Positions 7,386 through 62,450 of a stretch of 64,000 bases of DNA are shown piece by piece; within the stretch, counting starts at the first letter, position 1; every line of letters starts with the position of its first letter. The notes beneath the pieces were generated by a model that saw nothing but the letters and a program-made list of their open reading frames with translations, was not told the origin of the DNA and ran no database searches. Position numbers and translations under genes: made by a program. The stretch comes from Candidatus Hydrothermia bacterium (lineage in GTDB: Bacteria; Hydrothermota; Hydrothermia; UBA1063): assembly GCA_049719805.1 (NCBI GenBank), contig JBNARF010000002.1, positions 342,628 to 406,627 on the forward strand, given 5' to 3'.

Positions 7386-7394
7386 GGAGGCACT

Positions 7395-8411: not shown

Positions 8412-8422
8412 GAGGAAGGTCA

Positions 8423-8812
8423 ATGAGACACTTAAAGAAAGTCAAAAAATTAGGAATGGTTAAGGAGCATAGAAGAGCCGTTTTGAGAAATCAGGTAATG
8501 TCACTCTTTATACATGGCAGGATTGTCACGACTTTGCCCAAGGCTAAGGAAACCAGAAGGCTTGCAGAGAAATTAATTACTATTGCAAAAAAGAAAGATT
8601 TATCAGCGGTAAGACTTGCTGCAACTTACATTAATGATAGAAAAATTTTAGAAAGATTATTTAAAGAAATTGCTCCCATTTTTGAGGGTAAAGAAGGAGG
8701 TTATACAAGGATACTGAGGCTCCCACCCAGGAAGGGAGACAATGCAAGAATGGCTATTTTGGAGCTCGTGGAAAAGCCTTCTAAACCTTTTGAGACCAAA
8801 GCGAAAGGCTGA
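8423..8812 (+). CDS. rplQ: 50S ribosomal protein L17
   Basis: MRHLKKVKKLG...HRRAVLRN and GGYTRILRL motifs. Confidence 0.96.
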   Translation: MRHLKKVKKLGMVKEHRRAVLRNQVMSLFIHGRIVTTLPKAKETRRLAEKLITIAKKKDLSAVRLAATYINDRKILERLFKEIAPIFEGKEGGYTRILRLPPRKGDNARMAILELVEKPSKPFETKAKG

Positions 8813-10642: not shown

Positions 10643-10651
10643 GAGGATGGT

Positions 10652-11239: not shown

Positions 11240-11253
11240 AAAGGAGTTTTTTG

Positions 11254-15083: not shown

Positions 15084-15092
15084 GAGGAATTT

Positions 15093-15677: not shown

Positions 15678-15687
15678 GAGGAATGAT

Positions 15688-16512: not shown

Positions 16513-16925
16513 GTGAAAAAATAAAAGGAATTATAGTTTCGAAGAAAAGTGAAAAGACATATCTGGTTAAGATACTGAAAGAAGGTGGTTGTGCTTCATG
16601 TACACTATCTAAGTTCTGTAGCCTTGGTAAATCAGAGGATTCTGAAAACTTAATTGAAGTGACCGGCGAGAATCTAAAGGTAGGTGACCTGGTAAGTATT
16701 GAGGAAAGAACTTCAGGGATTATGATTGCTAGTTTTCTCATTTTTATTGTGCCTATTATTTTTTTTATAGTTGGATATTACGTCGGGAAATGCATAGGCT
16801 TGTCAGAACCGCTAAGAACGGTATGTGGCTTTTTCCTTCTCAGTGTTTATATGTTAATTCTTCATTTTCTTGACAGGAAACTCAAAGAAATACTTTTCAG
16901 TTTTAAGATAAAGCGAGTTCTTTAA
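16509..16925 (+). CDS. RseC/MucC-like (SoxR-reducing-system type) small membrane protein
   Basis: N-terminal beta region with a Cys pair (GGCASCTLSKFC), then two TM helices. ATGA overlap with rnfB, the usual genomic partner of this family. Confidence 0.65.
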   Translation: MSEKIKGIIVSKKSEKTYLVKILKEGGCASCTLSKFCSLGKSEDSENLIEVTGENLKVGDLVSIEERTSGIMIASFLIFIVPIIFFIVGYYVGKCIGLSEPLRTVCGFFLLSVYMLILHFLDRKLKEILFSFKIKRVL

Positions 16926-24902: not shown

Positions 24903-24922
24903 TTCCTAAGGGAGGTGACGTG

Positions 24923-25855
24923 ATGAAAAGGTTAATAATGTTGATGATGTTTTTTATATTTGTCCTATCCTTTTCATGTAAAAGGCCACAAAGTTATGAG
25001 GACGAAGCTGTAACTGCGGTGGGTGAAATTTCGGACGTTAATTCTGATGCTGATTCCAGTGAGGCTCAAGTTCAACTGGCTAAATTGCCTGAACCTGAAG
25101 GTATTCCCATTCTGGTTGGTATTGACAAGTCATTCTGGATTAAAGACCCCACAGATCCAACTCCATTATTACACATGGTTAACCTTTACACCAACCTTTA
25201 TTTAAGAAGCTCTTCCAGCTTTGGTGAATATTACTATGACACTTTGTATCGAACATGGGCGATGACTTCTCCAGATTTTCAAGGTGTAATACTTAACTGG
25301 ACAAATTCATCGGATTCTTATAAACTCATTTTCAAGGTTGAAAGGTATCAGGAGGTCTCTCAATATTTGCATGTAATAAAAGGTGGGATCGATTTCGTAA
25401 AAAACTCCACTGATACTTTGTATTCTTCAACTTTTGATTTAAATACCGAAACTTCTACTCTTAACCTTGTCTACAGTATACTGGATGTACTTACCGCCAA
25501 TGTAAGTGCTGTGCGTTCTGCAAAGTTTACACCATTTAATGGGGTTATAAACGGTGTAGTGGTGGGAAGAAACGGGAAATCCACTTTAATTGTAGATACC
25601 GTTAAATCAGACGATACCAGGAGAGTATCCGTCAGATTTGTGAGGTTAGGAATTGTTTTTGATATTAGAGCAAATGTTTCAGCCGCAAGTGCAGCCACAA
25701 ATGCACCCAGATACAGAGACATTTCCGGTGACTTTTATGCCAATGGGGCTCGTATAGGTAATGTTTCTGGTAGAAAATATGAATATGATACGCCCGAGCA
25801 CAAGAGCTTTTTACAGATTGAATTAAACTCTGGAAGGATAATCAGAATCTGGTAA
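24923..25855 (+). CDS. hypothetical lipoprotein with no family I recognise
   Basis: Signal peptide with lipobox LSFSC, then an acidic linker, then a Ser/Thr/Asn/Val-rich region that is probably beta-rich. Has its own promoter and SD. Confidence 0.6.
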   Translation: MKRLIMLMMFFIFVLSFSCKRPQSYEDEAVTAVGEISDVNSDADSSEAQVQLAKLPEPEGIPILVGIDKSFWIKDPTDPTPLLHMVNLYTNLYLRSSSSFGEYYYDTLYRTWAMTSPDFQGVILNWTNSSDSYKLIFKVERYQEVSQYLHVIKGGIDFVKNSTDTLYSSTFDLNTETSTLNLVYSILDVLTANVSAVRSAKFTPFNGVINGVVVGRNGKSTLIVDTVKSDDTRRVSVRFVRLGIVFDIRANVSAASAATNAPRYRDISGDFYANGARIGNVSGRKYEYDTPEHKSFLQIELNSGRIIRIW

Positions 25856-25870
25856 AATAAGAGTTGAAAA

Positions 25871-26269
25871 CTACTTAGCTTGCAATATTTTGAAAAGACC
25901 TTTTGCTTCAGCTAGTATTTCATGGTTATCGCTTACAATTTTAGAATTTGTAAAAGCCCAACCATTTCTCACATCATCGACAGCGCCTTCTATTGTGATG
26001 GTTTTTCCGATTTCCACCGGTTTTTTAAATTTTATTTCGAGCTTTGCAGTAACGCCCATAAGACCCATAGAGGCAACGGCATGCGCCATGGCCTCATCCA
26101 TGAGGGTTGCCAGGATACCACCATGCACAATATCCTTATAACCCTGGAGGGTTTTATCCGGGGTATATTTTATGACGGCTTTTTTATCACCCCTCTCAAT
26201 TTTGAGCTTTAATCCTCTTGGATTTTCCTGACCGCAAGCGAAACAGTATTTGTCGTCTTCCAATATCAT
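25871..26269 (-). CDS. PaaI/hotdog-fold acyl-CoA thioesterase
   Basis: CFACGQENPRGLKL N-terminus and HGGILATLMDEAMAHA, typical of PaaI-type thioesterases. Confidence 0.75.
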   Translation of the reverse strand: MILEDDKYCFACGQENPRGLKLKIERGDKKAVIKYTPDKTLQGYKDIVHGGILATLMDEAMAHAVASMGLMGVTAKLEIKFKKPVEIGKTITIEGAVDDVRNGWAFTNSKIVSDNHEILAEAKGLFKILQAK

Positions 26270-26748
26270 TTATCTTTAAGGAACCGCCAGCGTGAAAATT
26301 TAAATATTAACTTTTTCTGGTCATCGTCCAGCTCAAGTCTTTGGGGAAAATAGTCCTTTGTTATTAGCTTTAAGTAATTGAAGTTTTCGCTGTCTTTGGG
26401 GTACAAAAATAGAATTGAGTCATTAATGACAATGTTGTAGCTTATAGTATCTTCAAAGAAACTAAAATTTAAGAATTTCATTGCTTGATCTGATAAGGGT
26501 TCTTTGCTTACTTTTCCATTTGTTTCCACAAATAGAGTGTCTTTGATAATTTTATAAACCTCACGAGAGGGTTTCTTGATTTCAAAGGTAACAGTATTAT
26601 TTTTTTTTGTAAGTGTACCGATAAATGTATCCTGAGAGGCGATATCTTTATAGACTACAATTTCCTGGAAATCACATGCAAAATTTTTGTATGAAAATGA
26701 TTTTAAAGAGTCTATACTTAATCCAAGTAGGAAAAGAAAGCTAAGCAT
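26266..26748 (-). CDS. hypothetical exported protein (possibly a LolA-like fold)
   Basis: N-terminal signal-like segment and a beta-rich sequence. The LolA-like assignment is only an impression. Overlaps the thioesterase start by 4 nt. Confidence 0.45.
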   Translation of the reverse strand: MLSFLFLLGLSIDSLKSFSYKNFACDFQEIVVYKDIASQDTFIGTLTKKNNTVTFEIKKPSREVYKIIKDTLFVETNGKVSKEPLSDQAMKFLNFSFFEDTISYNIVINDSILFLYPKDSENFNYLKLITKDYFPQRLELDDDQKKLIFKFSRWRFLKDK

Positions 26749-34455: not shown

Positions 34456-36207
34456 ATGCTAGATTTTGAAGGAAATATTTATAGTCTCCTTAAAAGCTGG
34501 GGTTTAAAAGTTGCTAAAGTTTACTTTATCCATAAAATTCAGCTTTCTGAGTTTACAGAAGAAATACTAAAAGCCGGATCTAAAAGCCACATAATATTAC
34601 AAAGAAATAATTCAGTATATTTTGTTCGATGGCCAAACATCATCGTTTTTGAAGAGTGCGGTGAGCCTGAAAGGGTTAAGGAGTGGGCGGAGGCTCATAC
34701 TTCGTTTTTAAATTTTCTACTGGATTTAATGACCGGGCGTTACAGTCTCGATAGTATGACAGACTTCATAAGACTTCTCTCTGATATCAGGGATTACTAT
34801 CAAGTTTATGGCCTAATTGTGGAGAAAATTTGTCATCTTACTTCTTCAACGATTGGAGCTCTTACTGTTTATGACAAAAATTTGAATATGTTATTTGGTA
34901 AAGGTTCAGGATATGTTAATCGTGAATTGCATGGTGATGTTGACGTAGAACACACATTTGTTTTTCATCTCACTCCTGAAACCGCTGCAAGTAAAGCATT
35001 GGAGATGAGAGATTTGATAGTTATTAACAATACTTCCTTAGAGGAAAGGATATTAAAAAAGTTCGTCGAATACTATAAAGTGGATAGAGTAATAGTTGCA
35101 CCACTTTTTGTTGAATCAGAACTGTTTGGCGTTATTTATCTGGGTAGATTTTTAGGCTATCCTGAATACCAGCAGGAAGAAATTAAAATCCTAAGAATGC
35201 TCCTCCCCTATCTTACTTCAGTGGTAAGACTCCTAAAATACCAGGAGGATTCAATAAGGAAGCTCAAAGCATTACTTTTCGTTAAGACAATTTCTGAAGA
35301 TATTCTTTCCGAGACGAATATTTACAAAATATTAGACATTGCAAGGGACTATATATTGGAGCTTCTAAAATTTGAAGAATTTGCATTTATTAGTATTGAA
35401 GGTGATGAGTATAAAGTTATTTATTCTCACAATTTTCATTCTTCGCAATTGGAAGCATTGATAGATGGGGCTGGTTGTATAAGTAAAGTTTTAAATAAGG
35501 CGAACAATGAGGACGAAGAGATTACCTTTGAGTGTTTAGAACAAGAGGTGATGGAAAAGATGGGTTATAAATCTCTGTTGGCTGCACCTATAAAAATTGA
35601 CAGTCAGTTCTCCTTTGTTTTAATTCTTGGGTCTAAAATAAGGGGTACTTTAGAAAAGGGGGATTCGGATTTTCTTAGAGTCGTTATAAATTCCATAGGA
35701 GTTGCATTAAAAAATCTTTCACTTTATCAAAAAAGTTTAGAAACGCTGGATAAGGTTATAGAAATGCTCTCCCAGTTGGAAAGTAAAAAAGATTACTTCA
35801 CTGCTAACCATTCTAAGGAGGTTGCTGAGTTTGCTCTGAAGATTTCAAAGGAGTTAATGTTGCCCGAGGAAGAAATGAAAAACATATATGTTGCGGGTCT
35901 TTTACATGACCTGGGTAAAGTTGTGGTGGAAAAGGCAGTGCTACTGAAAAAGTCTGCTTTAAATGAAGATGAATGGAAGGAGATTAAGTCGCATCCCCAT
36001 TGGGGGCGGGAGATTCTCGAAAATATTCCCGGGCTCAGCGCTGTGGCTAATTATGTGGAGACTCATCATGAGAAGTTCGACGGGAGTGGTTACCCTTTTG
36101 GCCTAAAAGCAGAAGAAATTCCTCTTGGAGGGAGGATTCTTTGTATTGCCGATGCAGTAGTCACTATGCTTTCAGATAGGCCTTATAGAAAGGCATTGAC
36201 CAGATAA
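34456..36207 (+). CDS. GAF-domain / HD-GYP c-di-GMP phosphodiesterase, prematurely terminated by an in-frame TAA
   Basis: The C-terminal part has HSKEV, LLHDLGK, HPHWG and HHEKFDGSGYPFGL (HD and GYP motifs). The upstream ~430 aa look like GAF-type sensor repeats. The ORF stops at RPYRKALTR*. Confidence 0.8.
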   Translation: MLDFEGNIYSLLKSWGLKVAKVYFIHKIQLSEFTEEILKAGSKSHIILQRNNSVYFVRWPNIIVFEECGEPERVKEWAEAHTSFLNFLLDLMTGRYSLDSMTDFIRLLSDIRDYYQVYGLIVEKICHLTSSTIGALTVYDKNLNMLFGKGSGYVNRELHGDVDVEHTFVFHLTPETAASKALEMRDLIVINNTSLEERILKKFVEYYKVDRVIVAPLFVESELFGVIYLGRFLGYPEYQQEEIKILRMLLPYLTSVVRLLKYQEDSIRKLKALLFVKTISEDILSETNIYKILDIARDYILELLKFEEFAFISIEGDEYKVIYSHNFHSSQLEALIDGAGCISKVLNKANNEDEEITFECLEQEVMEKMGYKSLLAAPIKIDSQFSFVLILGSKIRGTLEKGDSDFLRVVINSIGVALKNLSLYQKSLETLDKVIEMLSQLESKKDYFTANHSKEVAEFALKISKELMLPEEEMKNIYVAGLLHDLGKVVVEKAVLLKKSALNEDEWKEIKSHPHWGREILENIPGLSAVANYVETHHEKFDGSGYPFGLKAEEIPLGGRILCIADAVVTMLSDRPYRKALTR

Positions 36208-43594: not shown

Positions 43595-44446
43595 TTAGTG
43601 TCTGTCACTTGGGTATTTCCAGTCTTTATCGAGGCACATTCGGGATAATCTGGTTATGGTGGGAATTTTTCGCTTGTGCTCCGAAGACACCACGCGTTGG
43701 TAAATATCTAGTATTGCTTCTTCTTTCAGATTTAATACTTCGGAAGTCTCTCTAACTGAAAGTTCTAATTCTACCAAGCAATAGAGAACACGATCAATTT
43801 CATAATACGTGTGTCCCAATTCTTCCTCATCTGTTTGCCCCACCCAAAGCCCGGCTGAAGGTTTTTTCCTGATTATTTCCGTTGGGATTCCAACGTAGTC
43901 GGACATTTGCCATACCTGAGTTTTGTAAAGGTCGCCAATGGGATAAAAATCTACTGCTATGTCACCATATTTTGTCCCGTATCCAAGGAGAAGTTCCGTT
44001 TTATTCGAGGTTCCTATTACGAATCCCCCGAGAGTGTTTGCATAGAGGTAGTTCAGAATCATTCTAATTCTGGGTTTTACATTTGCCAGGGCAAGTTTTT
44101 GGTTTTTGTTAGCAGCCTCTATTTCTTCGTATCGCTCTTTAAACCACTCGATGGCAGCGTTTATTGGAATAATTCTGTAGTTTATGTTGAACTTTTTGAC
44201 GAGGTCCAATGCATGTTCAATGTCTTCCTGAGGAGACACACCTTCTTCAGGCATTATGAGACATAGTAGGTTATCACCTAAAGCTTCTTTACTTAAAACG
44301 GCCACAAGGGATGAATCCACACCGCCGGATAATGCCACTATACCCACTTTTACGCCGAGTTTTTCATATCGGTCCCTTATGGAGTTAACAATAATTTTCT
44401 TGTAGAGTTCAAGTTCTTCATTTTTCAATAGAATATCTATATCCAT
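43595..44446 (-). CDS. nadE: NAD+ synthetase, stand-alone synthetase (PP-loop) subunit
   Basis: ALSGGVDSSLVA PP-loop (SGGxDS), GTSNKTELLLGY and DLYKTQV motifs. Confidence 0.9.
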   Translation of the reverse strand: MDIDILLKNEELELYKKIIVNSIRDRYEKLGVKVGIVALSGGVDSSLVAVLSKEALGDNLLCLIMPEEGVSPQEDIEHALDLVKKFNINYRIIPINAAIEWFKERYEEIEAANKNQKLALANVKPRIRMILNYLYANTLGGFVIGTSNKTELLLGYGTKYGDIAVDFYPIGDLYKTQVWQMSDYVGIPTEIIRKKPSAGLWVGQTDEEELGHTYYEIDRVLYCLVELELSVRETSEVLNLKEEAILDIYQRVVSSEHKRKIPTITRLSRMCLDKDWKYPSDRH

Positions 44447-45279
44447 TTACTCATCTCCTCGTACGCCCTCAAAACTTCTTCAAGAATCTCTCTCCTGACT
44501 TCTCTTACCCTGATGTCCCTTCTTCGGAGTCTTTTGGCCTCTTCAAGGTCAACTTCTATTACCTCAAAGTCCTCTTCTAAAAGTTTAAGCCTTTTAATAA
44601 TTTTAGCACTGGCAGAGTAGACAGCACTGCCACCCCAGTAGGTTATTCCCTCCTGTACTCCACACATATTAGCAAACACCACGGGCAGTATGTTGTCTAA
44701 AACCCTCACCTTCAGAAAGTCATCCCAGGTGTCGATTTTTCCTCTGTCAAAAGGTGATGCAGAAAGAGCAAATATGACTTCTGCACCGCGGAAGGTCAAA
44801 GCCCTGGCTGGTTCGGGGAACCACAGGTCCTCACTTATGAGAATTCCGATTTTTCCAAAGGGAGTCTCAAAAACAGGCAAAGTAGAGCCCGCTTTAAAGT
44901 ATTTTAACTCGTCGAAAAGACGGTAGTTTACAAGCTGTGTTTTTGCATATTTTCCGATTATCCTTCCGGAATTAATTAGTGCGGCAGAGTTATAAAAGAA
45001 TCCTCTTTCGTCCTTGTCTACAAAGCCTATAATTGCCCAGATTTTAAGTTCTTCTGTCCTCTTCAGAATCCGCTTTAAAGATTCTAAATTTTCGTCAACT
45101 TTATCAAGGTAAATGTCGCCGGAACCGTAACCCATGGTGGTGAGTTCTGGAAATACTACGATATGGGCACCACTGTTTTTTCCTCTCTCCAGTGCTTCCA
45201 CAATCTTTTTCTCATTATACTCTATATATCCTAGCCGTGATGATATTTGTGCGATTCCAACCTTAATTGTTCTTTTCAT
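44437..45279 (-). CDS. carbon-nitrogen hydrolase (nitrilase superfamily), probable glutaminase partner of NadE
   Basis: IVVFPEL (Glu), a Lys region, and an ISEDLWFPE region at the position of the catalytic stretch. Overlaps the nadE start by 10 nt. Confidence 0.8.
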   Translation of the reverse strand: MKRTIKVGIAQISSRLGYIEYNEKKIVEALERGKNSGAHIVVFPELTTMGYGSGDIYLDKVDENLESLKRILKRTEELKIWAIIGFVDKDERGFFYNSAALINSGRIIGKYAKTQLVNYRLFDELKYFKAGSTLPVFETPFGKIGILISEDLWFPEPARALTFRGAEVIFALSASPFDRGKIDTWDDFLKVRVLDNILPVVFANMCGVQEGITYWGGSAVYSASAKIIKRLKLLEEDFEVIEVDLEEAKRLRRRDIRVREVRREILEEVLRAYEEMSKWI

Positions 45280-45288: not shown

Positions 45289-45777
45289 TTAGAAGCCTAT
45301 TTCAAAATTCTGGTCAAAACGTCCTGTAATATACCATCTCCCTCTTGATCCCCTGAAATCAGGCAAGTCATAACTAATTTCAAGGGATCCAGCTGAGCCT
45401 CTGGCATTAAAAACGTTACTACCAAACTTCAATCTTCCTCCAAATGAGTAATCATTGTGATCAGAATAGAGATGGGTATGATACACAACTCCCAGGCCTG
45501 CGTAAGGAGAGAAATATTTTGTTGGGTATATGAAATTTACGGTTAGGGGAGCATTAATCTCCTTATAGTCGTTTCGAAACACATATTCTCCGGACCCTTC
45601 TAATGACAAAAATTTTACAGGATAATATCCAGCTGTAAAGCCTATAACTGGGTAAGCATTGCCATTTTCAAATATCAAAGAGGAGTTGGCACCGAAACGG
45701 AATTTTGTGCCCTTTGTTCGGGCAAAAACCGGACATATAAACATAAAGATTGCTAAGATAATTATAGTTCTGTTCAT
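45289..45777 (-). CDS. small outer-membrane beta-barrel protein
   Basis: Signal peptide, alternating beta-strand pattern, and a C-terminal ...NFEIGF ending in Phe (OMP sorting signature). Confidence 0.6.
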   Translation of the reverse strand: MNRTIIILAIFMFICPVFARTKGTKFRFGANSSLIFENGNAYPVIGFTAGYYPVKFLSLEGSGEYVFRNDYKEINAPLTVNFIYPTKYFSPYAGLGVVYHTHLYSDHNDYSFGGRLKFGSNVFNARGSAGSLEISYDLPDFRGSRGRWYITGRFDQNFEIGF

Positions 45778-46420: not shown

Positions 46421-46762
46421 ATGGGCGTCGTTCACGCTGTTTTAAATATATTAGCTTTTTTATTTTTAAGTTTAGGCATTTATTTTGCCAAAAGACACAG
46501 GTTAAGTGTTCATCATGTACTTGTTTTTTCAGCAAGTTCTTTATTGTCTGCCAGTGTTGTGATGATGCTAATTTACTCTGGTGGACTTATTAATTTGCAC
46601 TGCTTTTTCGGGATTATCGTTTGGTTTACTATGTTTGTGTCGGTTACCGTGGGTTTCTTGTTTAGAAAACGGCTGGTGAAGAGGAAAGTACATAAGGTAC
46701 TCGGATTAATAAGTGTTTTGTCAATAGCTTTGCAAGTTATATTCGCTTTTATACCCTTATGA
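46421..46762 (+). CDS. small 4-TM, His-bearing membrane protein (possible b-type cytochrome partner of the DOMON protein)
   Basis: 113 aa with four predicted TM helices and His at or near helix ends (H5, H26, H31, H32, H59, H91). Starts 5 nt after the DOMON gene. ATGA overlap with polA. Confidence 0.45.
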   Translation: MGVVHAVLNILAFLFLSLGIYFAKRHRLSVHHVLVFSASSLLSASVVMMLIYSGGLINLHCFFGIIVWFTMFVSVTVGFLFRKRLVKRKVHKVLGLISVLSIALQVIFAFIPL

Positions 46763-49261: not shown

Positions 49262-49290
49262 TTGACTTTGGGTGAGTTTTACCTTAATAA
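49262..49290 (+). promoter_or_regulatory. possible promoter of the FIST-HK-RR-mglA operon
   Basis: TTGACT (49262-49267), 17 nt, TAATAA (49285-49290). Confidence 0.3.
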
Positions 49291-49349
49291 TATTATTATT
49301 GCAAAAGGAGGGTTAGAAAATTTTCCTGAATGATGATTGGTGGAAAAAG

Positions 49350-50630
49350 ATGCAGAGGGAACCAACCACACCAAGGATTGGTGTGGGTAGGGTAGGGCCT
49401 GAAGGAGCTGGTACAGAAAGGCCTATTATCGTAACGGGCATGGCAACAGGTATTTCTCAGGACCCCTCCCCATGGAAGGCAGGTGTCCAGGCCGGGAAAG
49501 GAGCTCTCGATAAACTCGGGAAATTAAAGCCGGATTTCGCTCTTGTTTTTGTCACTGGGAATTACGAGTTAGACCTGGTGGTTAAGGGTGTTTTGCAGTC
49601 TATAGGTAAAGATGTTCCCGTGGTGGGGGTTAAGACCCTGGGTGTTCTTTTTAACGAAAAGCAGGTTATTAATTCAGGTGTGCTCGTTGGCGTCATCAAA
49701 AGCGATACATACAAAATTGTGCATTCCTTTGGCAAGAACGTTCATCAGGGTTTGCACTCTGCTCTCGAATCCGCCTGTATTCCTGTTTTGGAGCAGTTGA
49801 GAGCAAGAAAAGGAGAGGGATATGAATATTTGAATCTATTCCTGATTTTAGACTCATATGTTAATGGAGATATTCTTGTCTCTGAAGTTTCTCGTATAGT
49901 AGATGGGTATGACCCGGGTATATCCTTTTACGGTGGAATTTTAGATTTTGAAGAAATATCAAAAGAATGTGCACTAAATACTGGCACCGAGACTTTAAAT
50001 GGTGGAATTCTTTGTGTTGGATTTTACTCCAAAGTTCCACCTGCTTTAGGGTATGGCCACGGGCTTCATCCATTGGTTCCCAAAAGGGCTACCAAAGTTG
50101 GGGGTAATGTAATCTATCATTTTGATAATAGACCCGCATTTGAGGTCTGGAAGGAGTTCCTTGTTAAGAAAGGCATACCCGAGGCTGATATAATTAAGAA
50201 TCCTGCTCAGTACCTGGGGATGTATCAGTTCGGCGTCCCTGATCCTAATAATCCAAAGTACCCTAAGGTAAGGATAGCAGTGGGTATAACCAGGGAAGGT
50301 GGAATTAAACTGGCGGGAGATGTACCTGAGAATTCAACAGTGTGGTTTATGGAAGCCCGTAAAGAAAGAATGATGGAAGCTGTTAGTCAGGGTATTGATG
50401 ACGCTTTTTCAAAAACAGACCAAAGGAAACCCCTTGGTTCCATTGTATTAGAAAGCTTACACAGGTTTGCTTCTTTGGGAAGCGAGTTTTACAGTGAAGT
50501 TAGTGCTTTTCAGAGAAAGATTGCCTTACCTCTTATAGGTTTTACAACCTTTGGGGAGTTTTTGCGACCACAGCCCGAATATAAATGGTTCCATAATTCT
50601 TCCTTTACGATTCAAATTCTTACGGAGTGA
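49350..50630 (+). CDS. FIST-domain sensory protein
   Basis: PDFALVFVTGNY...PVVGVKTLGV (FIST_N-like) and IGFTTFGEF (FIST_C-like). N-terminal ~30 aa uncertain. Confidence 0.7.
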   Translation: MQREPTTPRIGVGRVGPEGAGTERPIIVTGMATGISQDPSPWKAGVQAGKGALDKLGKLKPDFALVFVTGNYELDLVVKGVLQSIGKDVPVVGVKTLGVLFNEKQVINSGVLVGVIKSDTYKIVHSFGKNVHQGLHSALESACIPVLEQLRARKGEGYEYLNLFLILDSYVNGDILVSEVSRIVDGYDPGISFYGGILDFEEISKECALNTGTETLNGGILCVGFYSKVPPALGYGHGLHPLVPKRATKVGGNVIYHFDNRPAFEVWKEFLVKKGIPEADIIKNPAQYLGMYQFGVPDPNNPKYPKVRIAVGITREGGIKLAGDVPENSTVWFMEARKERMMEAVSQGIDDAFSKTDQRKPLGSIVLESLHRFASLGSEFYSEVSAFQRKIALPLIGFTTFGEFLRPQPEYKWFHNSSFTIQILTE

Positions 50631-50639
50631 TTTTGCTGG

Positions 50640-52022
50640 ATGGATTTAGTAGGAGAGACCGAGTTTAAGAAACTGCTCTCCTTATCAGGAGAGATTTTTA
50701 TTATACTTGATAGAAGGAAAAAGGTGATTACATACGCAAGTCCCAATGTGAGTGAATTAGGATATTCTGTAAATGAAGTCCTGAACGTAAATTTCCTGAA
50801 TTTGGTTGCAGGGCACGTAAAGCCAATTTTGGAGAAACGTTTTAATGAGTCTCCATCAAAGCCAATGTACGGATTAAGATTAATACTGAAGAGCAAGGAA
50901 AATGTCTATATGCCCTATTCCCTTAATTACCTTGTAGACAACGAAAAAATATACCTTGCTCTCCAAAAGGAAAAGGGAATTAATCTCTCGGAAATTGTAA
51001 TAGATTCGCTGGATTTTGGAATTATTTTTACTGATACAGAATTTAAAATTTTGTACCACAATGCTTTTTTATCTAATTATTTTGAAAGGGCATCTTTTTC
51101 CCATCTGGAACAACTTCCTTATGGATTGGGTCAAAAGCTAATCGAGTATTTAAGGCTTGGAACCAAAAATGTTGAAATAGAGTATATACCTGGGCGCCAC
51201 CTGGGAATACAGATAGAACCCCTGGAACTCACTGATGTTTCAGGTTATCTAATAAAATTGAAAGATATTACAAGTCAAAAAATGATTCAAAAATCAATGT
51301 CTGAGCTTGATAGTTATTTTTCGCTGGGTCAACTGGCATCCGGTCTCGCCCACGAAATTAAAAATCCCCTTGCAGGAATGAAATTTATTGCCCTTAGTTT
51401 AAAAAGAGAGTTAAATTCTCCGCCACACATAGAAATGATTGAAAGGTTGATAAAGCAGATAGACAGAATTAATGCTTTAGTGAAAACCTTTTTCAGTCAG
51501 GTGAAAACCAAAGCTGTGGATTTTAAAAAGTGCAATATTAAGGAGACAGTCGAGGAAATTAAGAGCTTTTTAAACAGCGATTTAATTCAAAATGGCATTA
51601 TCTTTGAGTATTTAGAGAATTCGCCCGGGTCGGTTTATGCAGATCGAAATCACTTGTATACTATACTTCTTAATCTTATTCAGAACGCCGTAGACGCATT
51701 AAAAAGTCAAAAGGGGCTTAGAAAAATAGAAGTGCAGGTGAGGCAAAGTGACACAAAGTGCCCGGATTGTGGTCAAAAACTTGTGGAAATCGAGGTTAAA
51801 GATACCGGCCCTGGTATAAAAAAAGAGGACCTGGAAAGGATTTTCTATCCCTTCTTTACAACAAAGGCCGAAGGGGTGGGCCTTGGTTTATTTCTGGTCC
51901 ATAAAATGGTTAAAGAAAACAAAGGTTTTATAAGGGTTTTTTCTGAGGTTGGAAAGGGGACAAGTTTTGTTTTATACTTACATCCTGTTACCCCCGAGGC
52001 TATGGGGTGTGTAAAAAAGTAA
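50640..52022 (+). CDS. cytoplasmic PAS-domain sensor histidine kinase
   Basis: No TM segments. H-box LASGLAHEIKNPLAG, N-box LIQNAVDA, G1 DTGPGI, G2 GVGLGL. Confidence 0.9.
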   Translation: MDLVGETEFKKLLSLSGEIFIILDRRKKVITYASPNVSELGYSVNEVLNVNFLNLVAGHVKPILEKRFNESPSKPMYGLRLILKSKENVYMPYSLNYLVDNEKIYLALQKEKGINLSEIVIDSLDFGIIFTDTEFKILYHNAFLSNYFERASFSHLEQLPYGLGQKLIEYLRLGTKNVEIEYIPGRHLGIQIEPLELTDVSGYLIKLKDITSQKMIQKSMSELDSYFSLGQLASGLAHEIKNPLAGMKFIALSLKRELNSPPHIEMIERLIKQIDRINALVKTFFSQVKTKAVDFKKCNIKETVEEIKSFLNSDLIQNGIIFEYLENSPGSVYADRNHLYTILLNLIQNAVDALKSQKGLRKIEVQVRQSDTKCPDCGQKLVEIEVKDTGPGIKKEDLERIFYPFFTTKAEGVGLGLFLVHKMVKENKGFIRVFSEVGKGTSFVLYLHPVTPEAMGCVKK

Positions 52023-52038
52023 TTAAGGAGGTGTGATT

Positions 52039-53502
52039 ATGCCCATTAGGGTACTTTTAGTAGACGACGAGGAAGATATTCTTTGGGGGCTATCTGAAGA
52101 GCTCAGTAGAAATAAGATTGAAGTTGATACTGCTACTAATGGACTTGAGGCCCTTGAAAAAATTAAGAAAAAACAATACGACTTTCTTGTGACTGATATT
52201 AGAATGCCAGGCCTCAGTGGTTCTGAGCTTCTTATAGAGACAAAGAAAATTCAGCCGGATATTAAGGTTATTGTGATGACTGCATATGGTTCCGACGAAG
52301 TAAAGCAGGATGTGCTCACCAAGGGAGCTATAAGTTATCTTGAAAAGCCCTTTGATTTTGATCAGATTCTCAATGTAATAATGGAGAAACAGGTAGCCGG
52401 GGAAGAAGAGACTCTTCGTAATCTTACGCTACAGCAATTTTTACAGCTGGTTTCCATGGAGGGAAAGTCTTGTGAGATCGTGGTTAACACATCCGAAGGA
52501 GAAGGAAAGATCTTCTTCGAGGAGGGAGAGGTTATAAATGCATCCATCGGGAAACTAAGGGGTGAAGAAGCTTTTTCAAGGATTCTGAAAGAACCTGAAA
52601 GTTCCTTTAAGGTTAAGTGGGGAAGTCCAAAAGTTAAGAGGGAAATTGAAAAACCATTTCATGCATTGCTATTAAGTGCAGCTGTTCAAAAGGACGAAGA
52701 AGTTGCGTTTAAGGAGGAACTGGGTGGCTTTGATCTCGAAAGTCTATCCGAGCTCTTCAAAGATGAGGGTGTACAAGAAGAAGTAGAGGCTGTACCCGCT
52801 GAAGAGGAGTCTACTTTAGAGCCATATACTGCCCCTGTTGAGGAGGAAATTGAAGTCCCCTTAGAAGAAAGTGTTGAAGAGAAGATTGAAGAGAAGATCG
52901 AAGAGGAAAAGGAACAGCCATCCGTCACCCTGGAAGAAGTTGAGAAACTTTTAGAGGGGATTAGTGAAAGAGTTGAGGAAGCTCCTGCTGCGCCTGAACC
53001 AGAATTTAAAGCAGAGGAAGTAATTGAGAAGCCTGCCGAAGAGGAGGTAATAATTAGAGAGGTTAAGCCCTCTGAAAAAGAATTGAAAGCTGTTGAAGAA
53101 ATAAAACCAGCTGCACCTGCTCCATCTCATGTAAAATTGAGTCAAGAGCTTAAAGAAAAGTTTACTGGTGTGGTAAAAGAAATATCTGATATTCTTGCGC
53201 TTCTTGTGGTTGATTCAGATGGTAATATAGTAAGTTCTTCAGAAAGGGTTTCAACAGGTGTTCCACAGGTTATAAAGATATGGGCTCCCGCTTTAAAGAA
53301 CATAGTGCAGAGTGCCGGTAAGACCTCTATTGGATCTATTAAAGATATAACTTTAACATCCGATAAGTATCACCTTTTAATTACCGATGCTAAAAATGGC
53401 TCAATGCTGATAGTTGCAGTGATACCGGTCAAAAGTATGAAAATTGCCCTTGTTAAAATTAAGATTAAGGAGCTAATAACAGAAATTGCGAAAGTCGTTT
53501 AA
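52039..53502 (+). CDS. response regulator: receiver, DUF4388/PATAN-like domain, ~140-aa Glu/Pro-rich linker, Roadblock/LC7-like C-terminal domain
   Basis: Receiver: LLVDDEED, FLVTDIRMPG, VMTAYG, LEKPF. DUF4388-like: LQQFLQLVSMEGKSCEIVV...GKIFFEEGEVINAS...GEEAF. Acidic linker 52693-53130. C-terminus ALLVVDSDGNIV...ITLTSDKYHLLI...MLIVAVI. ATG 52039 lies 7 nt after AAGGAGG. Confidence 0.8.
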   Translation: MPIRVLLVDDEEDILWGLSEELSRNKIEVDTATNGLEALEKIKKKQYDFLVTDIRMPGLSGSELLIETKKIQPDIKVIVMTAYGSDEVKQDVLTKGAISYLEKPFDFDQILNVIMEKQVAGEEETLRNLTLQQFLQLVSMEGKSCEIVVNTSEGEGKIFFEEGEVINASIGKLRGEEAFSRILKEPESSFKVKWGSPKVKREIEKPFHALLLSAAVQKDEEVAFKEELGGFDLESLSELFKDEGVQEEVEAVPAEEESTLEPYTAPVEEEIEVPLEESVEEKIEEKIEEEKEQPSVTLEEVEKLLEGISERVEEAPAAPEPEFKAEEVIEKPAEEEVIIREVKPSEKELKAVEEIKPAAPAPSHVKLSQELKEKFTGVVKEISDILALLVVDSDGNIVSSSERVSTGVPQVIKIWAPALKNIVQSAGKTSIGSIKDITLTSDKYHLLITDAKNGSMLIVAVIPVKSMKIALVKIKIKELITEIAKVV

Positions 53503-53548
53503 AATTTCGCTATAATAGCTTTATACTTTCTCTTGGGGGAGTTATAAG

Positions 53549-54169
53549 GTGCTTATTGATTTCAGAAAACACGAGATAAAGTTTAAAATAGTTTATTATG
53601 GCCCCGGTTTGAGCGGTAAAACTACTAATATAAAGAGAATTTATGAACGTTTCACGGGTAAAAAAGGACAGCTTCTCTCTATCGACACTAAGGGCGAGAG
53701 AACGTTATTTTTTGACCTTCTTCCCTTGCAGCTTTCCATTATAAAAGGTTATAACACTATTTTTAGTCTTTATACTGTCCCTGGTCAGGTATTTTATAAG
53801 CAGGCAAGAAAATTAGTTTTAAGAAATGCAGATGGGGTTATCTTCGTCGCGGATTCTAATCCAGAGAGGCTTGAGGAGAATATCAAAATTTATGAAGAAA
53901 TGCACAACACCCTAATTGAATACGGGATGTGGAGTTCTACAAGAAAGGTCCCCATAATTGTCCAGTATAATAAAAGGGACGATCCAAATGCTCTTCCTGT
54001 ATCATTATTAGAAGAAAAAGTCAACAAATACAAATATCCGTACGTCCTTGCTATAGCAACAGAAGGCAAAGGTGTCTTTCAGACTTTGCAAATTATGATT
54101 AACGAGGTAATTAAAAACTCGCTTAAGCAACAACAACTTCAATTTTTATTACAGCAACAAAAGAAGTAG
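53549..54169 (+). CDS. mglA: MglA-type Ras-like small GTPase
   Basis: KIVYYGPGLSGKTTN, ERTLFFDLLP, YTVPGQVFY (TVPGQ instead of DxxGQ) and QYNKRD. I could align it to Myxococcus MglA from memory over most of its length. GTG start after GGGGGA. Confidence 0.85.
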   Translation: MLIDFRKHEIKFKIVYYGPGLSGKTTNIKRIYERFTGKKGQLLSIDTKGERTLFFDLLPLQLSIIKGYNTIFSLYTVPGQVFYKQARKLVLRNADGVIFVADSNPERLEENIKIYEEMHNTLIEYGMWSSTRKVPIIVQYNKRDDPNALPVSLLEEKVNKYKYPYVLAIATEGKGVFQTLQIMINEVIKNSLKQQQLQFLLQQQKK

Positions 54170-54261
54170 TAAAACTCCTTTTCTGTTTAAACTTTTAAAA
54201 ATCCTAAAAACCTAAATATTGGGAAAGTTGGGCAAATTTAAGTTAAATTATTAAATACAAA

Positions 54262-54630
54262 TCATGGAAGTGCTTCTCTAAATTTGGTAGCAAACTTGCC
54301 CATAGTAATCTTTGTAACACCCCAATTACCTTTCCTGGTTAGAACTACAATATGTACGTAATTGGAATCCGGGATTATCCTGATTATGATAAAATGTTCA
54401 TTCGTTGTGAGAAGTACATCCTCGCAAACGCCTAAATTTGCATTTTCTGTGGCGCTCATGGCTTTTCTCGCAACTTCTGTAAGATATGCAAGAGGTATTG
54501 AAACGTCGATAGATTCGTCAGTGGTGTGTCCAGTAATGGGTATTGCATCATCAAGGTTTACAATCATGGACATGAGGACTTCATCTACGCTACTTAGAAA
54601 CTCTTGCATCACATCATCAATTTTTGCCAT
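54262..54630 (-). CDS. mglB: Roadblock/LC7-domain protein, MglB-like
   Basis: 122 aa with the Roadblock pattern (LMSMIVNLDDAIPI...NLGVCEDVLLTTNEHFIIIRII...VHIVVLT). Starts 1 nt after the pilT stop. Convergent with mglA. Confidence 0.6.
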   Translation of the reverse strand: MAKIDDVMQEFLSSVDEVLMSMIVNLDDAIPITGHTTDESIDVSIPLAYLTEVARKAMSATENANLGVCEDVLLTTNEHFIIIRIIPDSNYVHIVVLTRKGNWGVTKITMGKFATKFREALP

Positions 54631-54631
54631 T

Positions 54632-55786
54632 TTAAATTCCTCCTTTCTCTTTTGCTTTTCTCATGGCCATCCTTTCAAAAATTTCCCAATTTCTTCCACC
54701 CTCTCCTCCCGAGGCAATCCCTTTCATCCTTAATTCAAGAACTTCTCTTTTGGATGCATAGGAGAGGGCGGTATCCTCCGAAATATACCCAAGTTTATAC
54801 CAATAATATAAGGATTGATCAAAGGTTTGCATTCCGTAAGGAATGTATCCATCAGCAACGGCATCGAAGATTTCATGAGTTCTCTTTGGATCAAGAATCA
54901 TTTCTTTTATTCTTTGCGTATTTATCATTACTTCACAGGCGGGGATTCTACCGGGCATGTCATCTCTTGGAATTAGTCTTTGGGATACTACTGCTTTCAA
55001 TACTGAGGCAAGCTGATGTCTAACTTGTTCCTGCTGATGCGCTGGGAAGATGCTTACAATCCTGTTTATAGTTTCTCTTGCGTCTAAGGTGTGAAGAGTA
55101 GAAAGAACGAGGTGCCCTGTTTCTGCTGCAAGCAAAGCTATTTCTGCTGTTTCTTGATCCCTTATTTCACCCACCATAATTACATTAGGATCCTGTCTCA
55201 GGGCTTCCCTGAGCCCGTCGGCAAAACTTAAGACATCAAGACCCACTTCTCTTTGGCTTATTATACTTTTCACATCCCTCAACAAGTACTCTATAGGATC
55301 TTCGATGGTAACTATGTGAACAGATTTATTAATATTTATATAGTTTATCATTGCGGCGAGGGTAGTGGATTTTCCAGAGCCAGCAACTCCTGTGACGAGA
55401 ACAAGACCCCTGTCCTCCATCGCGATTCTTTCAAGGCATGCAGGCAAATTCAGTTCCTGTATGGTCTTTATCAAGGGGGGAATTGCTCTTATTGCAAAGG
55501 ACCATGTACCTCTCTGACTAAAAATATTTACTCTGAATCTTCCGATGTTAGGGAAACTAAAAGCAACGTCAACGCTCAAACGTTCTCTTAGTTCCTTCTG
55601 TTTTGACGGTGAGAGGTAAACCCTTATTAGCTCCTCGGTATCTTCTCTTGTCACGACAGGATAATTGTCTCTCATGTAGAGTTTCCCGTAGATTCTGAAA
55701 ATAGGAGGATGGCCTACTTTTATATGTACGTCTGATGCTTCTCTTTCTTTTGCATCTAGAAGAAGCCTTTCAAGATCAATTCCCAT
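54632..55786 (-). CDS. pilT: type IV pilus retraction ATPase PilT-like, with a C-terminal extension
   Basis: Walker A GVAGSGKSTT, HIVTIEDPIEY, MVGEIRD, His box GHLVLSTLHT. 384 aa, about 40 aa longer than the PilT proteins I know. Confidence 0.85.
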   Translation of the reverse strand: MGIDLERLLLDAKEREASDVHIKVGHPPIFRIYGKLYMRDNYPVVTREDTEELIRVYLSPSKQKELRERLSVDVAFSFPNIGRFRVNIFSQRGTWSFAIRAIPPLIKTIQELNLPACLERIAMEDRGLVLVTGVAGSGKSTTLAAMINYININKSVHIVTIEDPIEYLLRDVKSIISQREVGLDVLSFADGLREALRQDPNVIMVGEIRDQETAEIALLAAETGHLVLSTLHTLDARETINRIVSIFPAHQQEQVRHQLASVLKAVVSQRLIPRDDMPGRIPACEVMINTQRIKEMILDPKRTHEIFDAVADGYIPYGMQTFDQSLYYWYKLGYISEDTALSYASKREVLELRMKGIASGGEGGRNWEIFERMAMRKAKEKGGI

Positions 55787-55795: not shown

Positions 55796-55824
55796 ATTTT
55801 AATTTTAAGTCTTAATTAAGTCAA
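55796..55824 (-). promoter_or_regulatory. candidate promoter giving a near-leaderless pilT-mglB mRNA
   Basis: On the minus strand, TTGACT (55824-55819), 17 nt, TAAAAT (55801-55796), 9 nt, ATG 55786. No SD. Confidence 0.45.
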
Positions 55825-60973: not shown

Positions 60974-61771
60974 TTAACGTCCGATAAGTTTAGTTTTTAT
61001 TTCCCGGAATTTTGTCCACATAAAGTCCTGATTATACCCAAATAAAGCGTGTTTTAAATTGTTCTTGATTTTTGGATCCTTTTTGTATATTTCTCCAAGG
61101 AATTCTCTCACAATTTTTCTCTTGTTTTCATCCTCAGAAATACATTTACCTTCCAAATCCATGGGGATTCTTGCAAGGTATGCGTACTTTATTATTTCCT
61201 TTTTTTCTAAAAGAATTATGGGTCTTGAAATGTAATATTCTCCATTAAAAAGCGGTTGTAGGGGCATTAAGGTACTTATACCCCTGGAATAGAACATGTT
61301 TAGAAACAATGTCTCCAGAACATCATCGAGGGTGTGAGCAAGGAGAATCTTGCGCGCCCCTATCTTTGATGCATATTCTAAAAGCAATCTCCTTCTTTCT
61401 CTGGAGCAAACAAAGCACGGCCTAAAAGGTTTTAACCTTTTTTCAATGATAATTTTACTCGATGTATCTTGGATTATTGCAAAAATAAATCTCCTCTCTT
61501 CCACGAACTTTTGAATAACGTCGGCATTCTTTAGATTTTTCAACGAGTTATCAATGAAAACAGCGTGGAGATTAAAACTCAAATTGTTTTTTGCTTTATA
61601 GTGAAAAAGAAGGTCTAACATCGTTAAACTGTCTATGCCACCCGAAAGGCCTGCAACAAAAACGTTATCTGTCCCGAGAACATTGAGGAATGTGTCTGTT
61701 TTTTTTATCTTGGCAAGCAGTTTATTTCGAAACCTTATGAGCTCTTCGTGCATTTTAATATTTTCTTGCAT
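60974..61771 (-). CDS. ttcA: PP-loop ATPase, TtcA-like tRNA thiolation enzyme
   Basis: GLSGGIDSLTML (SGGxDS), CFVCSRERR (CxxC plus the RR typical of TtcA), and AHTLDD. Confidence 0.72.
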   Translation of the reverse strand: MQENIKMHEELIRFRNKLLAKIKKTDTFLNVLGTDNVFVAGLSGGIDSLTMLDLLFHYKAKNNLSFNLHAVFIDNSLKNLKNADVIQKFVEERRFIFAIIQDTSSKIIIEKRLKPFRPCFVCSRERRRLLLEYASKIGARKILLAHTLDDVLETLFLNMFYSRGISTLMPLQPLFNGEYYISRPIILLEKKEIIKYAYLARIPMDLEGKCISEDENKRKIVREFLGEIYKKDPKIKNNLKHALFGYNQDFMWTKFREIKTKLIGR

Positions 61772-61844: not shown

Positions 61845-62450
61845 ATGTTTAATTTAATAAGTTTATTAGTTTTATCAAGCTTCTCAATAGGATTTTTCGC
61901 TGACCCCTTAGCTCAAGGGGCATCTGTAAAAATAGGGACAAAAAGTGGGATAGTTTATTCAATTGTGACCTCTGGTAGAATTGGCGAAAAAAGGTATGAA
62001 TACTGGTTATATGATGGTGGTATGGATTCCTTAATAGATACTATTGGTGCTTTTCATTGGTTTAAGCTGGAAGTCAGAGCAGAGCGCCCTTACTTTGAGA
62101 GGAAAGGTGTGAAACTATATTTTCATGCTGGATTAGGAACTACATCAGATAGGGAATGGATTTTTAACGAAGGTACCAGAACCTGGAAAGAGTATAACTA
62201 CAAATCTGTAGGTGCTATAGCTGGAACGGGACTTTATGTATATCCGTTTCCGTTTATACTTGGCCTCCTTGAAACCGGGGAAAAGGCTGCCCGCAGGTCC
62301 GCCAGGATTGAAGATGGTTTCATGGTTCAGATCGAACTTATAAATCTATATTATCGCAGATTTTTTGGAGAAAGGCCTATTCCTGACTTTTTTAGGTCTT
62401 ATGACTATGGTGGCTTAGGGATGGGGATAGGAGTATATTACACTTTTTAA
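61845..62450 (+). CDS. hypothetical exported protein, possibly an outer-membrane beta-barrel
   Basis: Signal-like N-terminus, aromatic-rich alternating pattern, C-terminal GIGVYYTF ending in Phe. Confidence 0.45.
   Translation: MFNLISLLVLSSFSIGFFADPLAQGASVKIGTKSGIVYSIVTSGRIGEKRYEYWLYDGGMDSLIDTIGAFHWFKLEVRAERPYFERKGVKLYFHAGLGTTSDREWIFNEGTRTWKEYNYKSVGAIAGTGLYVYPFPFILGLLETGEKAARRSARIEDGFMVQIELINLYYRRFFGERPIPDFFRSYDYGGLGMGIGVYYTF

Follow-up and report, generated by a model that had tools for sequence, protein, structure and literature searches.

An MglA GTPase gene linked to a FIST protein, a soluble histidine kinase, a PATAN-Roadblock response regulator and pilT in a Candidatus Hydrothermia bacterium

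The closest described systems

The Roadblock fold is a known fold of GTPase regulators, and MglB uses a Roadblock dimer as a platform to activate the small GTPase MglA. To our knowledge, the route by which a signal reaches the MglA switch is understood only in Myxococcus, where it runs indirectly via Frz and RomR, and we know of no established role for the PATAN proteins that are often encoded beside mglA. This report concerns a six-gene locus in a 64-kb stretch of DNA (the window, 64,000 nucleotides (nt) of contig JBNARF010000002.1 of a Candidatus Hydrothermia bacterium, with positions counted from its first letter), in which the genes of a FIST protein, a histidine kinase, a response regulator and MglA follow one another on the plus strand and converge on pilT and the gene of a Roadblock-fold protein of 122 amino acids (aa). 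By analogy with the systems described below, we put at roughly 55%, slightly above even odds, the probability that this cytoplasmic cassette forms a direct connection between a two-component pathway and MglA, the switch by which type IV pili are positioned or activated. The cassette is a variant made from known parts (a NosP-style input, a PATAN/Roadblock scaffold, a group-1 MglA and an MglC-like gene tightly spaced with pilT) and not a new principle, since the association of PATAN, MglA and Roadblock proteins is already in the literature. Its interest lies in the presence, side by side, of a sensor, a kinase, a regulator, a GTPase, a second Roadblock protein and a retraction ATPase, with a Roadblock domain fused to a receiver. 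A compact cassette in which every protein is predicted to be soluble makes the proposition that phosphorylation controls a small GTPase directly testable in vitro and, if the wiring is as proposed, the NosP-type sensor paradigm would reach beyond cyclic di-GMP outputs and include a GTPase. There are real limits: the organisms are uncultured, we infer the wiring, and the general association was known before.

The polarity module of Myxococcus xanthus, formed by MglA, MglB, MglC and RomR/RomX, resembles the locus in several respects: a group-1 MglA with its own arginine finger and a TVPGQ motif, an MglC-like Roadblock partner of about 120 aa, a regulator that starts, like RomR, with a receiver and has a disordered region rich in Pro and Glu behind it, and a link to PilB/PilT-driven pili. 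In contrast to M. xanthus, there is no Frz/Che array nearby, the adjacent input genes encode a FIST protein and a soluble kinase, no free MglB is encoded in the locus, and the regulator has in addition a PATAN domain and a fused Roadblock domain. The genes are also clustered here, whereas mglA of M. xanthus has neither romR nor frz beside it (PMC4316618). The binding partners of MglC in M. xanthus are MglB and RomR, the latter through its Glu-rich region, and do not include MglA (PMC4719450). The MglA/MglB system of Thermus thermophilus offers the closest solved MglA, with the same catalytic motifs and an association with type IV pili; it is, however, a simple mglB>mglA> pair, whereas the Roadblock domains of the locus are MglC-like or fused to the regulator.

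On the input side, the locus is comparable to the NosP-NahK/NosK-NosR (NarR) systems of Pseudomonas, Legionella, Vibrio, Shewanella and Burkholderia, in which NosP-type FIST proteins bind haem and nitric oxide (NO) and set the autophosphorylation of NahK or NosK, the phosphate then passing to the operon regulator (PMC12570481, PMC8846402). Common to both are a stand-alone FIST_N-FIST_C protein, a soluble kinase with an H-E-x-x-N motif and a regulator in the same operon, and the NosR family is the second-best NCBIfam match of the receiver found here. The likeness is one of layout, and the output differs, PATAN-Roadblock followed by MglA taking the place of HD-GYP, GGDEF-EAL or an Hpt relay. An earlier reading of this DNA (the original prediction) had named a FIST sensor and a soluble PAS kinase as the only upstream input genes; FIST is not the only possible sensor concept here, and the combination of a stand-alone FIST protein, a soluble kinase and a regulator has already been described as the NosP layout. 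As regards the regulator, the PatA-type proteins of cyanobacteria (PixG, PixE, LsiR and PilG) likewise unite PATAN, their output domain, and a receiver in one protein, and the polarity of type IV pilus activity is under their control; in Synechocystis, PATAN binds PilB1 as well as PilC's N-terminal domain and reverses pilus polarity (bioRxiv 10.1101/2021.06.11.447907). The regulator of the locus has the PatA-type combination of PATAN and a phosphorylatable receiver, but in the order REC-PATAN instead of PATAN-REC (REC, receiver), with an additional acidic linker and Roadblock domain, with a HisKA kinase instead of a CheA-type one, and with mglA following it.

Neighbourhoods in which a PATAN gene adjoins a group-1 mglA, and in which Roadblock genes lie on that strand or converge on it, have been catalogued: the arrangements 'PATAN>MglB>MglA>' and '<PATAN>MglA<MglB' are given for Chlorobi, Chloroflexi and Aquificae in table S2 of Wuichet & Sogaard-Andersen 2014 (PMC4316618), where they are credited to Makarova et al. 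2006. Unlike the present locus, these entries record neither a kinase or FIST partner nor a PATAN:Roadblock fusion; WOR-3 and Hydrothermae lie outside that genome set, and 'FIST' is absent from the text and supplements of the paper. Full-text literature searches (MglA with FIST; PATAN with small GTPases) gave no description of the cassette. The original prediction was not aware of a characterisation of this wiring; as a claim of novelty this is too broad for the PATAN-MglA-MglB neighbourhoods already tabulated, but holds, in the searchable papers, for a FIST/kinase input and a REC-PATAN-Roadblock fusion feeding MglA. Finally, the actinobacterial conservons (CvnA kinase, CvnB Roadblock protein, CvnC and CvnD GTPase) also keep a histidine kinase gene together with the genes of an MglA-family GTPase and a Roadblock protein, and so connect two-component chemistry with a small GTPase; they differ in their membrane kinase, in having no response regulator, in a group-2 MglA (GTPGQ, no arginine finger) and in having no link to pili.

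Organisation of the locus

The six genes are as follows.

49350-50630, plus strand: FIST protein gene, 426 aa (open reading frame (ORF) confirmed)
50640-52022, plus strand: histidine kinase gene, 460 aa, 9 nt after the FIST gene
52039-53502, plus strand: response regulator gene, 487 aa, 16 nt after the kinase gene
53549-54169, plus strand: mglA, 206 aa, GTG start, 46 nt after the regulator gene
54262-54630, minus strand: ORF of the 122-aa Roadblock-fold protein, 1 nt downstream of pilT
54632-55786, minus strand: pilT, 384 aa

The first four genes form a tight plus-strand unit with operon-like spacing and ribosome-binding sites, and the ORFs bear out the order and the gaps of 9, 16 and 46 nt of the original prediction. 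The longest ORF of the regulator begins at GTG 52033; the gap of 16 nt to the kinase gene results from taking ATG 52039, which is preceded by AGGAGG, as the start, in agreement with a database homologue of 487 aa. Since the 122-aa ORF begins 1 nt past the pilT stop, the minus-strand pair is a tight unit too, and a spacer of 92 nt separates its end from that of mglA. Sequence prediction gave no membrane-spanning stretch in any of the six proteins. The pilT product matches TIGR01420 (PilT/PilU family) with 437 bits against a cut-off of 319, and Pfam T2SSE with an E-value (E) of 4.8e-50; it is, as judged by these matches, a PilT-family type IVa pilus ATPase, at a level where TIGR01420 does not separate PilT from PilU.

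Conservation in related bacteria

The annotation of the regulator's close homologues places them in candidate division WOR-3 or in Candidatus Hydrothermae. The neighbourhoods of eleven homologues were compared and checked with family hidden Markov models (HMMs), and a REC-PATAN alignment was searched against genome contigs. The latter search favoured generic receiver motifs (among the matches listed, the PATAN part was covered by L011-L018 only) and missed close relatives; it yielded locus L011 and gives no measure of taxonomic spread. The loci, with the histidine kinase abbreviated as HK and the response regulator as RR, are arranged as follows.

L001-L004, L091 and L092: module as in the window, syntenic throughout
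L005: FIST-HK-RR-mglA with new flanks, a peptidase M14 gene upstream
L006: FIST-HK-RR-mglA with new flanks, pilT convergent, mglA truncated
L007: FIST-HK-RR-mglA flanked by genes of VWA proteins and folC, no pilT and no 122-aa gene nearby
L008: pilW-pilX-pilY1, then FIST-HK-RR-mglA, with a converging 122-aa gene
L093: FIST-HK-RR only (4361-8608), same regulator architecture, followed by the RNase PH gene, no mglA nearby
L009: pilM/N/O and secretin genes, then HK-RR-mglB-like-mglA, with a converging 122-aa gene and pilT, no FIST
L094: HK-RR-mglB-like-mglA, no FIST
L095: HK-RR-(148-aa weak MglB-like)-mglA, with a converging 122-aa gene, no FIST
L011 (WOR-3): mglB-like-mglA-HK-RR-Roadblock (130 aa), all on one strand, mglA upstream of the kinase gene, no FIST

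The first of these groups adds little, because it is syntenic throughout. Among the others, linkage of kinase, regulator and mglA persists amid unrelated flanking genes; it is real, and its conservation reaches well past the close relatives: the order FIST-HK-RR-mglA recurs in L005, L007 and L008, and HK-RR-mglA, with or without an intervening mglB-like gene, in L009, L011, L094 and L095. The stable core consists of the kinase, the REC-PATAN-Roadblock regulator and mglA, the latter being absent, among the lineages sampled, from L093 alone. This core is often accompanied by the MglC-like gene and by pilus genes. The 122-aa gene converges on mglA in L008, L009 and L095, pilT recurs in L006 and L009, and the cassette of L009 is placed between pilMNOQ and pilT, so that the proposed link to the pilus motor gene also stands, pilT or other pilus genes being adjacent in L006, L008 and L009.

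The FIST gene, directly upstream of the kinase gene in L001-L008 and L093 (and overlapping or abutting it in L005, L007, L008 and L093), marks one subclade. L009, L011, L094 and L095, but not the window, have a free gene for an MglB-like protein (148-165 aa) arranged in tandem with mglA. In the nine sampled lineages, five with FIST and four with an MglB-like gene, the two are mutually exclusive, which may reflect a single evolutionary event.

In the Hydrothermae metagenome contig of L006 (4507-6217), mglA matches its family as far as about residue 136 and then overlaps pilT, and the 122-aa gene is missing; this arrangement is either a deletion variant or a misassembly.

The MglA GTPase

Two signatures of group-1 MglA proteins are an arginine next to the G2 threonine and TVPGQ in place of DxxGQ (Wuichet & Sogaard-Andersen 2014, PMC4316618). 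The GTPase of the locus is a single-domain protein of 206 aa, within the limit of 240 aa for this group, with G1, G4 and G5 motifs and TVPGQ in G3; GPGLSGKT lies at residue 18, ERTLFFD at 50, TVPGQ at 76-80, NKRD at 141 and ATEGKG at 170. The intrinsic arginine beside the G2 threonine is found as R51-T52 in GERTLFFD, aligned to the ERTLFFD of Thermus MglA. The assignment was made by a PDB search and by these motifs, without a formal tree: the best solved relative is Thermus MglA (3t12, E 2.6e-60, 56% identity), M. xanthus MglA follows at E 8e-53 and 49% identity, and the best match outside MglA is Arf5 at E 3.8e-8. The nearest relatives are therefore MglA proteins and not Arf, Ras or Rup, and the motif-based identification in the original prediction stands; judged by its sequence, the protein is beyond reasonable doubt a group-1 MglA with its own catalytic arginine and glutamine. 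As for the Roadblock genes expected within four genes of mglA, two Roadblock-fold domains are encoded within one gene of it, neither of them a canonical MglB.

Two Roadblock domains

The original prediction had read the converging minus-strand pair as pilT and mglB. The first half of this is upheld by TIGR01420, but the second is not, since the 122-aa protein appears to be MglC-like. It has no match to Pfam Robl_LC7 or to an NCBIfam MglB model, even at E 10, and in a comparison of its family profile (A1) with the PDB the sole significant match is M. xanthus MglC (7ct3, E 3.5e-5), aligned over residues 8-118 of 122 against 7-117 of 120, with no MglB among the matches. Foldseek searches with its AlphaFold model (predicted local distance difference test, pLDDT, 66) give Roadblock/LC7 folds only, a result that supports the fold and cannot separate MglB from MglC. 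Because the family profile matches MglC and not MglB, and the fold is that returned by Foldseek, we regard the 122-aa product as a predicted Roadblock-fold protein that corresponds in type and size to MglC and is no MglB. The length of 150-165 aa, the C-terminal extension and the tandem position with mglA that are typical of MglB are likewise not seen in this convergent gene. In a weak alignment, L26, D28 and I30 stand opposite F25, D26 and I28, the FDI surface that MglC requires to bind its partner; within the family, D28 is invariant and position 30 is I or T. The family is found at 45-92% identity in L001, L003, L008 and L009, and is also present in L095.

The second Roadblock domain of the locus is the C-terminus of the response regulator, which matches Pfam Robl_LC7 below threshold (E 0.006, 16.6 bits against a cut-off of 23). 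Its profile (A3) finds M. xanthus MglB first in the PDB (6h5b_B, E 2.9e-5), with CvnB5 at 3.7e-5. In hhalign comparisons it aligns with the 122-aa family at E 6e-19 and with the free MglB-like proteins of the relatives at E 1.9e-9, whereas the alignment of the 122-aa family with these MglB-like proteins is not significant (E 0.02, probability 2%). Of the two Roadblock domains in the window, the regulator C-terminus is thus, at the sequence level, the more MglB-like and the better MglB candidate. The original prediction had correctly described the regulator as a multidomain receiver protein, but had made too little use of this C-terminal domain.

The NCBIfam Thermus-MglB model NF052242 matches neither Roadblock domain of the window, and does match the free Roadblock protein of L009 (E 5.8e-5). 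The 64-kb window encodes no third Roadblock domain and no free MglB-like gene. Searches for a canonical mglB with the MglB-like queries of L009 and L011 gave no match on contigs of the window type, an inconclusive result and not evidence of absence. The simple idea that the regulator Roadblock is an MglB that has become fused was dropped, as L009, L011, L094 and L095 have the fused domain together with a free MglB-like gene. Among 1.8 billion representative proteins, the 122-aa profile retrieved mostly proteins of about 120 aa or the C-termini of (REC-)PATAN proteins, so that the Roadblock subfamily to which both window domains belong seems habitually tied to PATAN.

The response regulator

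Four regions can be recognised in the regulator, the confidence values being those of an AlphaFold 2 model:

52039-52398, plus strand: receiver domain, residues 1-120, Response_reg E 2.7e-27, pLDDT about 88
52420-52713, plus strand: PATAN (DUF4388) domain, residues about 128-225, Pfam E 3e-14, pLDDT about 83
52720-53130, plus strand: disordered linker, residues about 228-364 (137 residues), 32% Glu and 9% Pro, pLDDT below 50
53143-53502, plus strand: C-terminal Roadblock/LC7 domain, residues about 369-487, pLDDT about 89

The receiver has the residues D9/D10, D53, T81 and K103, which are invariant across 32 homologues, and the Roadblock domain is modelled with an alpha-beta-beta-alpha-beta-beta-beta-alpha fold. 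A Foldseek search with the full model returned receiver domains only and is uninformative on PATAN. The architecture is also visible in the precomputed Pfam annotation of the distant homologues P0069, P0072 and P0076. With a linker that varies, the total length of the homologues ranges from 375 to 753 aa; regulators of FIST-type loci have 470-630 aa and a long acidic linker, as against 375-430 aa in MglB-type loci. In this respect the linker is similar to the output region of RomR from M. xanthus, which is Pro-rich and Glu-rich. In L010 (8001-11173), the gene of P0069, a distant REC-PATAN-Robl_LC7 protein, is followed by those of a 205-aa protein that is not a GTPase and of a second REC-PATAN protein, with a gene for a methyl-accepting chemotaxis protein (MCP) 6 kb upstream; PATAN-Roadblock regulators thus occur without an adjacent MglA too.

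The FIST protein and the kinase

Pfam confirms the domains named in the original prediction for the three signalling proteins, namely FIST, HisKA/HATPase_c, and Response_reg with DUF4388/PATAN. The FIST protein matches FIST (FIST_N) at E 2.3e-14 and FIST_C at E 5.6e-19 and has no further domain in its 426 aa; it is, by analogy, a candidate NosP-type auxiliary sensor, predicted to be cytoplasmic and stand-alone. The kinase matches HisKA (E 8e-10) as well as HATPase_c (E 5e-23), and its H-box is intact, with H238 in HEIKNP and the H-E-x-x-N phosphatase motif. It had been described as a cytoplasmic PAS kinase. Its solubility is borne out, no transmembrane segment being predicted, but PAS is weak in the window copy (E 0.004, two weak PAS-like regions) and clearer in orthologues, for instance as PAS_9 in L008; PAS is also implied by a match of residues 115-448 to AtoS in NCBIfam.

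A proposed route from the sensor to MglA

A plausible sequence of events would be the following. The FIST protein, like NosP, would bind a small ligand, possibly through haem with NO or another gas, and shift the kinase/phosphatase balance of the adjacent kinase, which would set the phosphorylation state of the receiver. The regulator would then act as a phosphorylation-controlled scaffold, on which PATAN would contact the pilus motor (PilB/PilC), by analogy with the cyanobacterial PatA-type regulators, while the Roadblock domain would dimerise with itself or with the MglC-like 122-aa protein; alternatively, the latter might be held on the Glu-rich linker. Such a Roadblock dimer would dock MglA and alter its GTP state or location, serving either as a platform for a GTPase-activating protein (GAP) function like that of MglB or as a recruiter like RomR/MglC. 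MglA-GTP would in turn bias where PilB and PilT work, so that, with no Che/Frz array involved, a chemical cue would alter the polarity or activity of the pili or the direction of twitching. The identity of the parts, with the intact H-box of the kinase and the complete phospho-acceptor set of the receiver, the operon-like spacing, the recurrence of FIST-HK-RR-mglA and of the FIST-less core amid differing flanks, the repeated presence of the 122-aa gene and pilT, and the covalent joining of the Roadblock domain to the receiver favour this wiring. The precedents of NosP control over adjacent soluble kinases, of PATAN binding to PilB1 and PilC, and of MglC binding to a Glu-rich region of RomR, with which the linker of 32% Glu may be compared, point the same way. 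A bolder version of the same idea, namely minimal pilus steering without an array, is doubtful and is put forward tentatively: here a NosP-like FIST protein would gate the kinase, the regulator would be at once a motor adaptor, a RomR-like acidic landmark and a Roadblock half completed by the MglC-like protein, and one phosphorylation would flip MglA.

Several observations weigh against the proposed coupling. Beyond domain identity and gene linkage, the signal flow is drawn by analogy, and so is haem binding; PDB and NCBIfam searches gave no relatives of the FIST protein. MglB-like and MglC-like are told apart by weak profile matches (E about 1e-5), in which CvnB does as well as MglB. The Roadblock domain of the regulator is retained in relatives that have a free MglB-like gene, so that its role may not be that of a GAP, and a canonical mglB could lie elsewhere in the genome. 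Both pilT and the 122-aa gene are missing from the surroundings of the L007 cassette, and L093 indicates that the FIST-HK-RR trio is separable from the GTPase. Moreover, the PATAN regulators of Synechocystis bound PilB1 and PilC, not PilT, and adjacency to pilT alone therefore does not fit that precedent (bioRxiv 10.1101/2021.06.11.447907).

Some of these points recur in the alternatives to direct coupling. As the main alternative, the locus might be part of an ordinary MglA/MglB system with a RomR-like landmark. The GAP would then be a canonical MglB with its gene elsewhere, the regulator and the MglC-like protein, as polar landmarks or recruitment factors analogous in function to RomR and MglC, would localise MglA with its nucleotide state unchanged, and the kinase would only tune their localisation. 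The RomR-like succession of a receiver and a Pro/Glu-rich disordered region argues for this, as does the fact that the only significant solved relative of the 122-aa protein is MglC, a binder of RomR and MglB and not of MglA; furthermore, L009, L011, L094 and L095 keep a free MglB-like gene beside both other Roadblock domains, and WOR-3 genomes encode Robl_LC7 proteins of about 150 aa. Nevertheless, it seems rather unlikely, given that the window has no free MglB-like gene, that the (inconclusive) search found none on contigs of its type and that the Roadblock profile of the regulator matches MglB best. Quite unlikely is the version of the original prediction, in which the 122-aa protein is the MglB GAP and the regulator provides phosphorylation-dependent input only, with an accessory second Roadblock domain. 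Such a role would suit the Roadblock fold of the protein, the position of its gene within one gene of mglA ('coupled' in the sense of PMC4316618), the COG label 'Roadblock/LC7/MglB family' given by JGI to relatives, and the convergent '<PATAN>MglA<MglB' layouts tabulated in Chloroflexi (Wuichet & Sogaard-Andersen 2014). However, the protein lacks any Robl_LC7 or NCBIfam MglB match at E 10, its family profile points to MglC instead of MglB (with a probability of 2% in hhalign against the free MglB-like proteins), its 122 aa leave out the C-terminal extension of MglBs of 150-165 aa, and L009, L011 and L095 have a free MglB-like gene in addition to its gene.

Two further readings concern the output. 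The cassette might control another function of the pilus, such as DNA uptake, adhesion or polar pilus placement, or a polarity process that does not involve pili. The hosts are uncultured WOR-3 bacteria with small genomes (a contig of about 1.7 Mb), pilus genes are missing from the surroundings of L007 and L093, and the closest solved MglA is that of Thermus, where MglA and MglB affect pilus localisation and pilus-related functions. Against this, the cassette has pilT or genes of pilus assembly next to it in loci of the window type and in L006, L008 and L009 despite unrelated flanks, and we consider such a function unlikely. Mere adjacency is improbable: the FIST-kinase-regulator trio would then be self-contained, with a PATAN output on the pilus motor or another target, and mglA, pilT and the mglC-like gene would be neighbours through their common service to pili and not through contact of the regulator with MglA. 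In L093 the trio occurs with no mglA beside it, and PATAN alone suffices for output in PixE of Synechocystis (bioRxiv 10.1101/2021.06.11.447907), yet the regulator carries a Roadblock domain, a fold dedicated to small-GTPase regulation. In addition, mglA directly follows the regulator gene or a free MglB-like gene, with short gaps or overlaps, in almost all sampled lineages with a readable downstream flank, the sole exceptions being L011, where it lies upstream of the kinase gene, and L093, where it is not nearby.

Surroundings of the locus in the window

A Pfam scan places polA upstream and der (engA) downstream of the six genes. Two sigma-70-like promoter candidates, each with 10 of 12 matches and weak, lie in the adjoining spacers; they are weak evidence, because sites of this kind are no more numerous in the region than expected by chance.

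49262-49291, plus strand: TTGACT-18-AATAAT, within the 104-nt spacer between polA and the FIST gene
55796-55824, minus strand: TTGACT-17-TAAAAT, in the spacer between der and pilT, upstream of pilT

The count from a terminator scan of the region was not above chance either, and Rfam and tRNA scans gave nothing associated with the locus. In agreement with the original prediction, no chemotaxis (Che/Frz) genes (CheA, CheW, MCP) were found by Pfam among the scanned window ORFs of at least 150 aa, nor within about 8 kb past the right end of the window, and the same holds for pilus genes besides pilT. The scan of the window left out five overlapping or embedded ORFs, which are probably spurious, and 43595-44446, 44437-45279 and 60974-61771, whose syntenic counterparts carry NAD_synthase, CN_hydrolase and ATP_bind_3. 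The remaining scanned ORFs encode, according to Pfam, housekeeping genes and unrelated signalling proteins. ORFs without a Pfam family at E 1e-6 are 24920-25855, 26266-26748, 45289-45777, 46421-46762 and 61845-62450 (113-311 aa); the counterparts of the last three are called as genes in relatives.

Among the signalling genes is a divergent pair encoding giant cytoplasmic proteins, one with GGDEF and TPR (16903-20262, minus strand, 1119 aa) and its partner with adenylate/guanylate cyclase, AAA_16 (STAND-like) and TPR (21537-24860, plus strand, 1107 aa). A protein with GAF and HD_5/HD (HD-GYP-type) is encoded at 34456-36207 on the plus strand, 13 kb from the FIST operon and unlinked to it; HD-GYP-type proteins are the output class usual for NosP systems. 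Finally, 8897-16512 (plus strand) comprises genes of a pyruvate:ferredoxin oxidoreductase and, behind them, a full operon of the Rnf type (RnfC, D, G, E, A and B-like), which is consistent with an anaerobic, ferredoxin-based energy metabolism.

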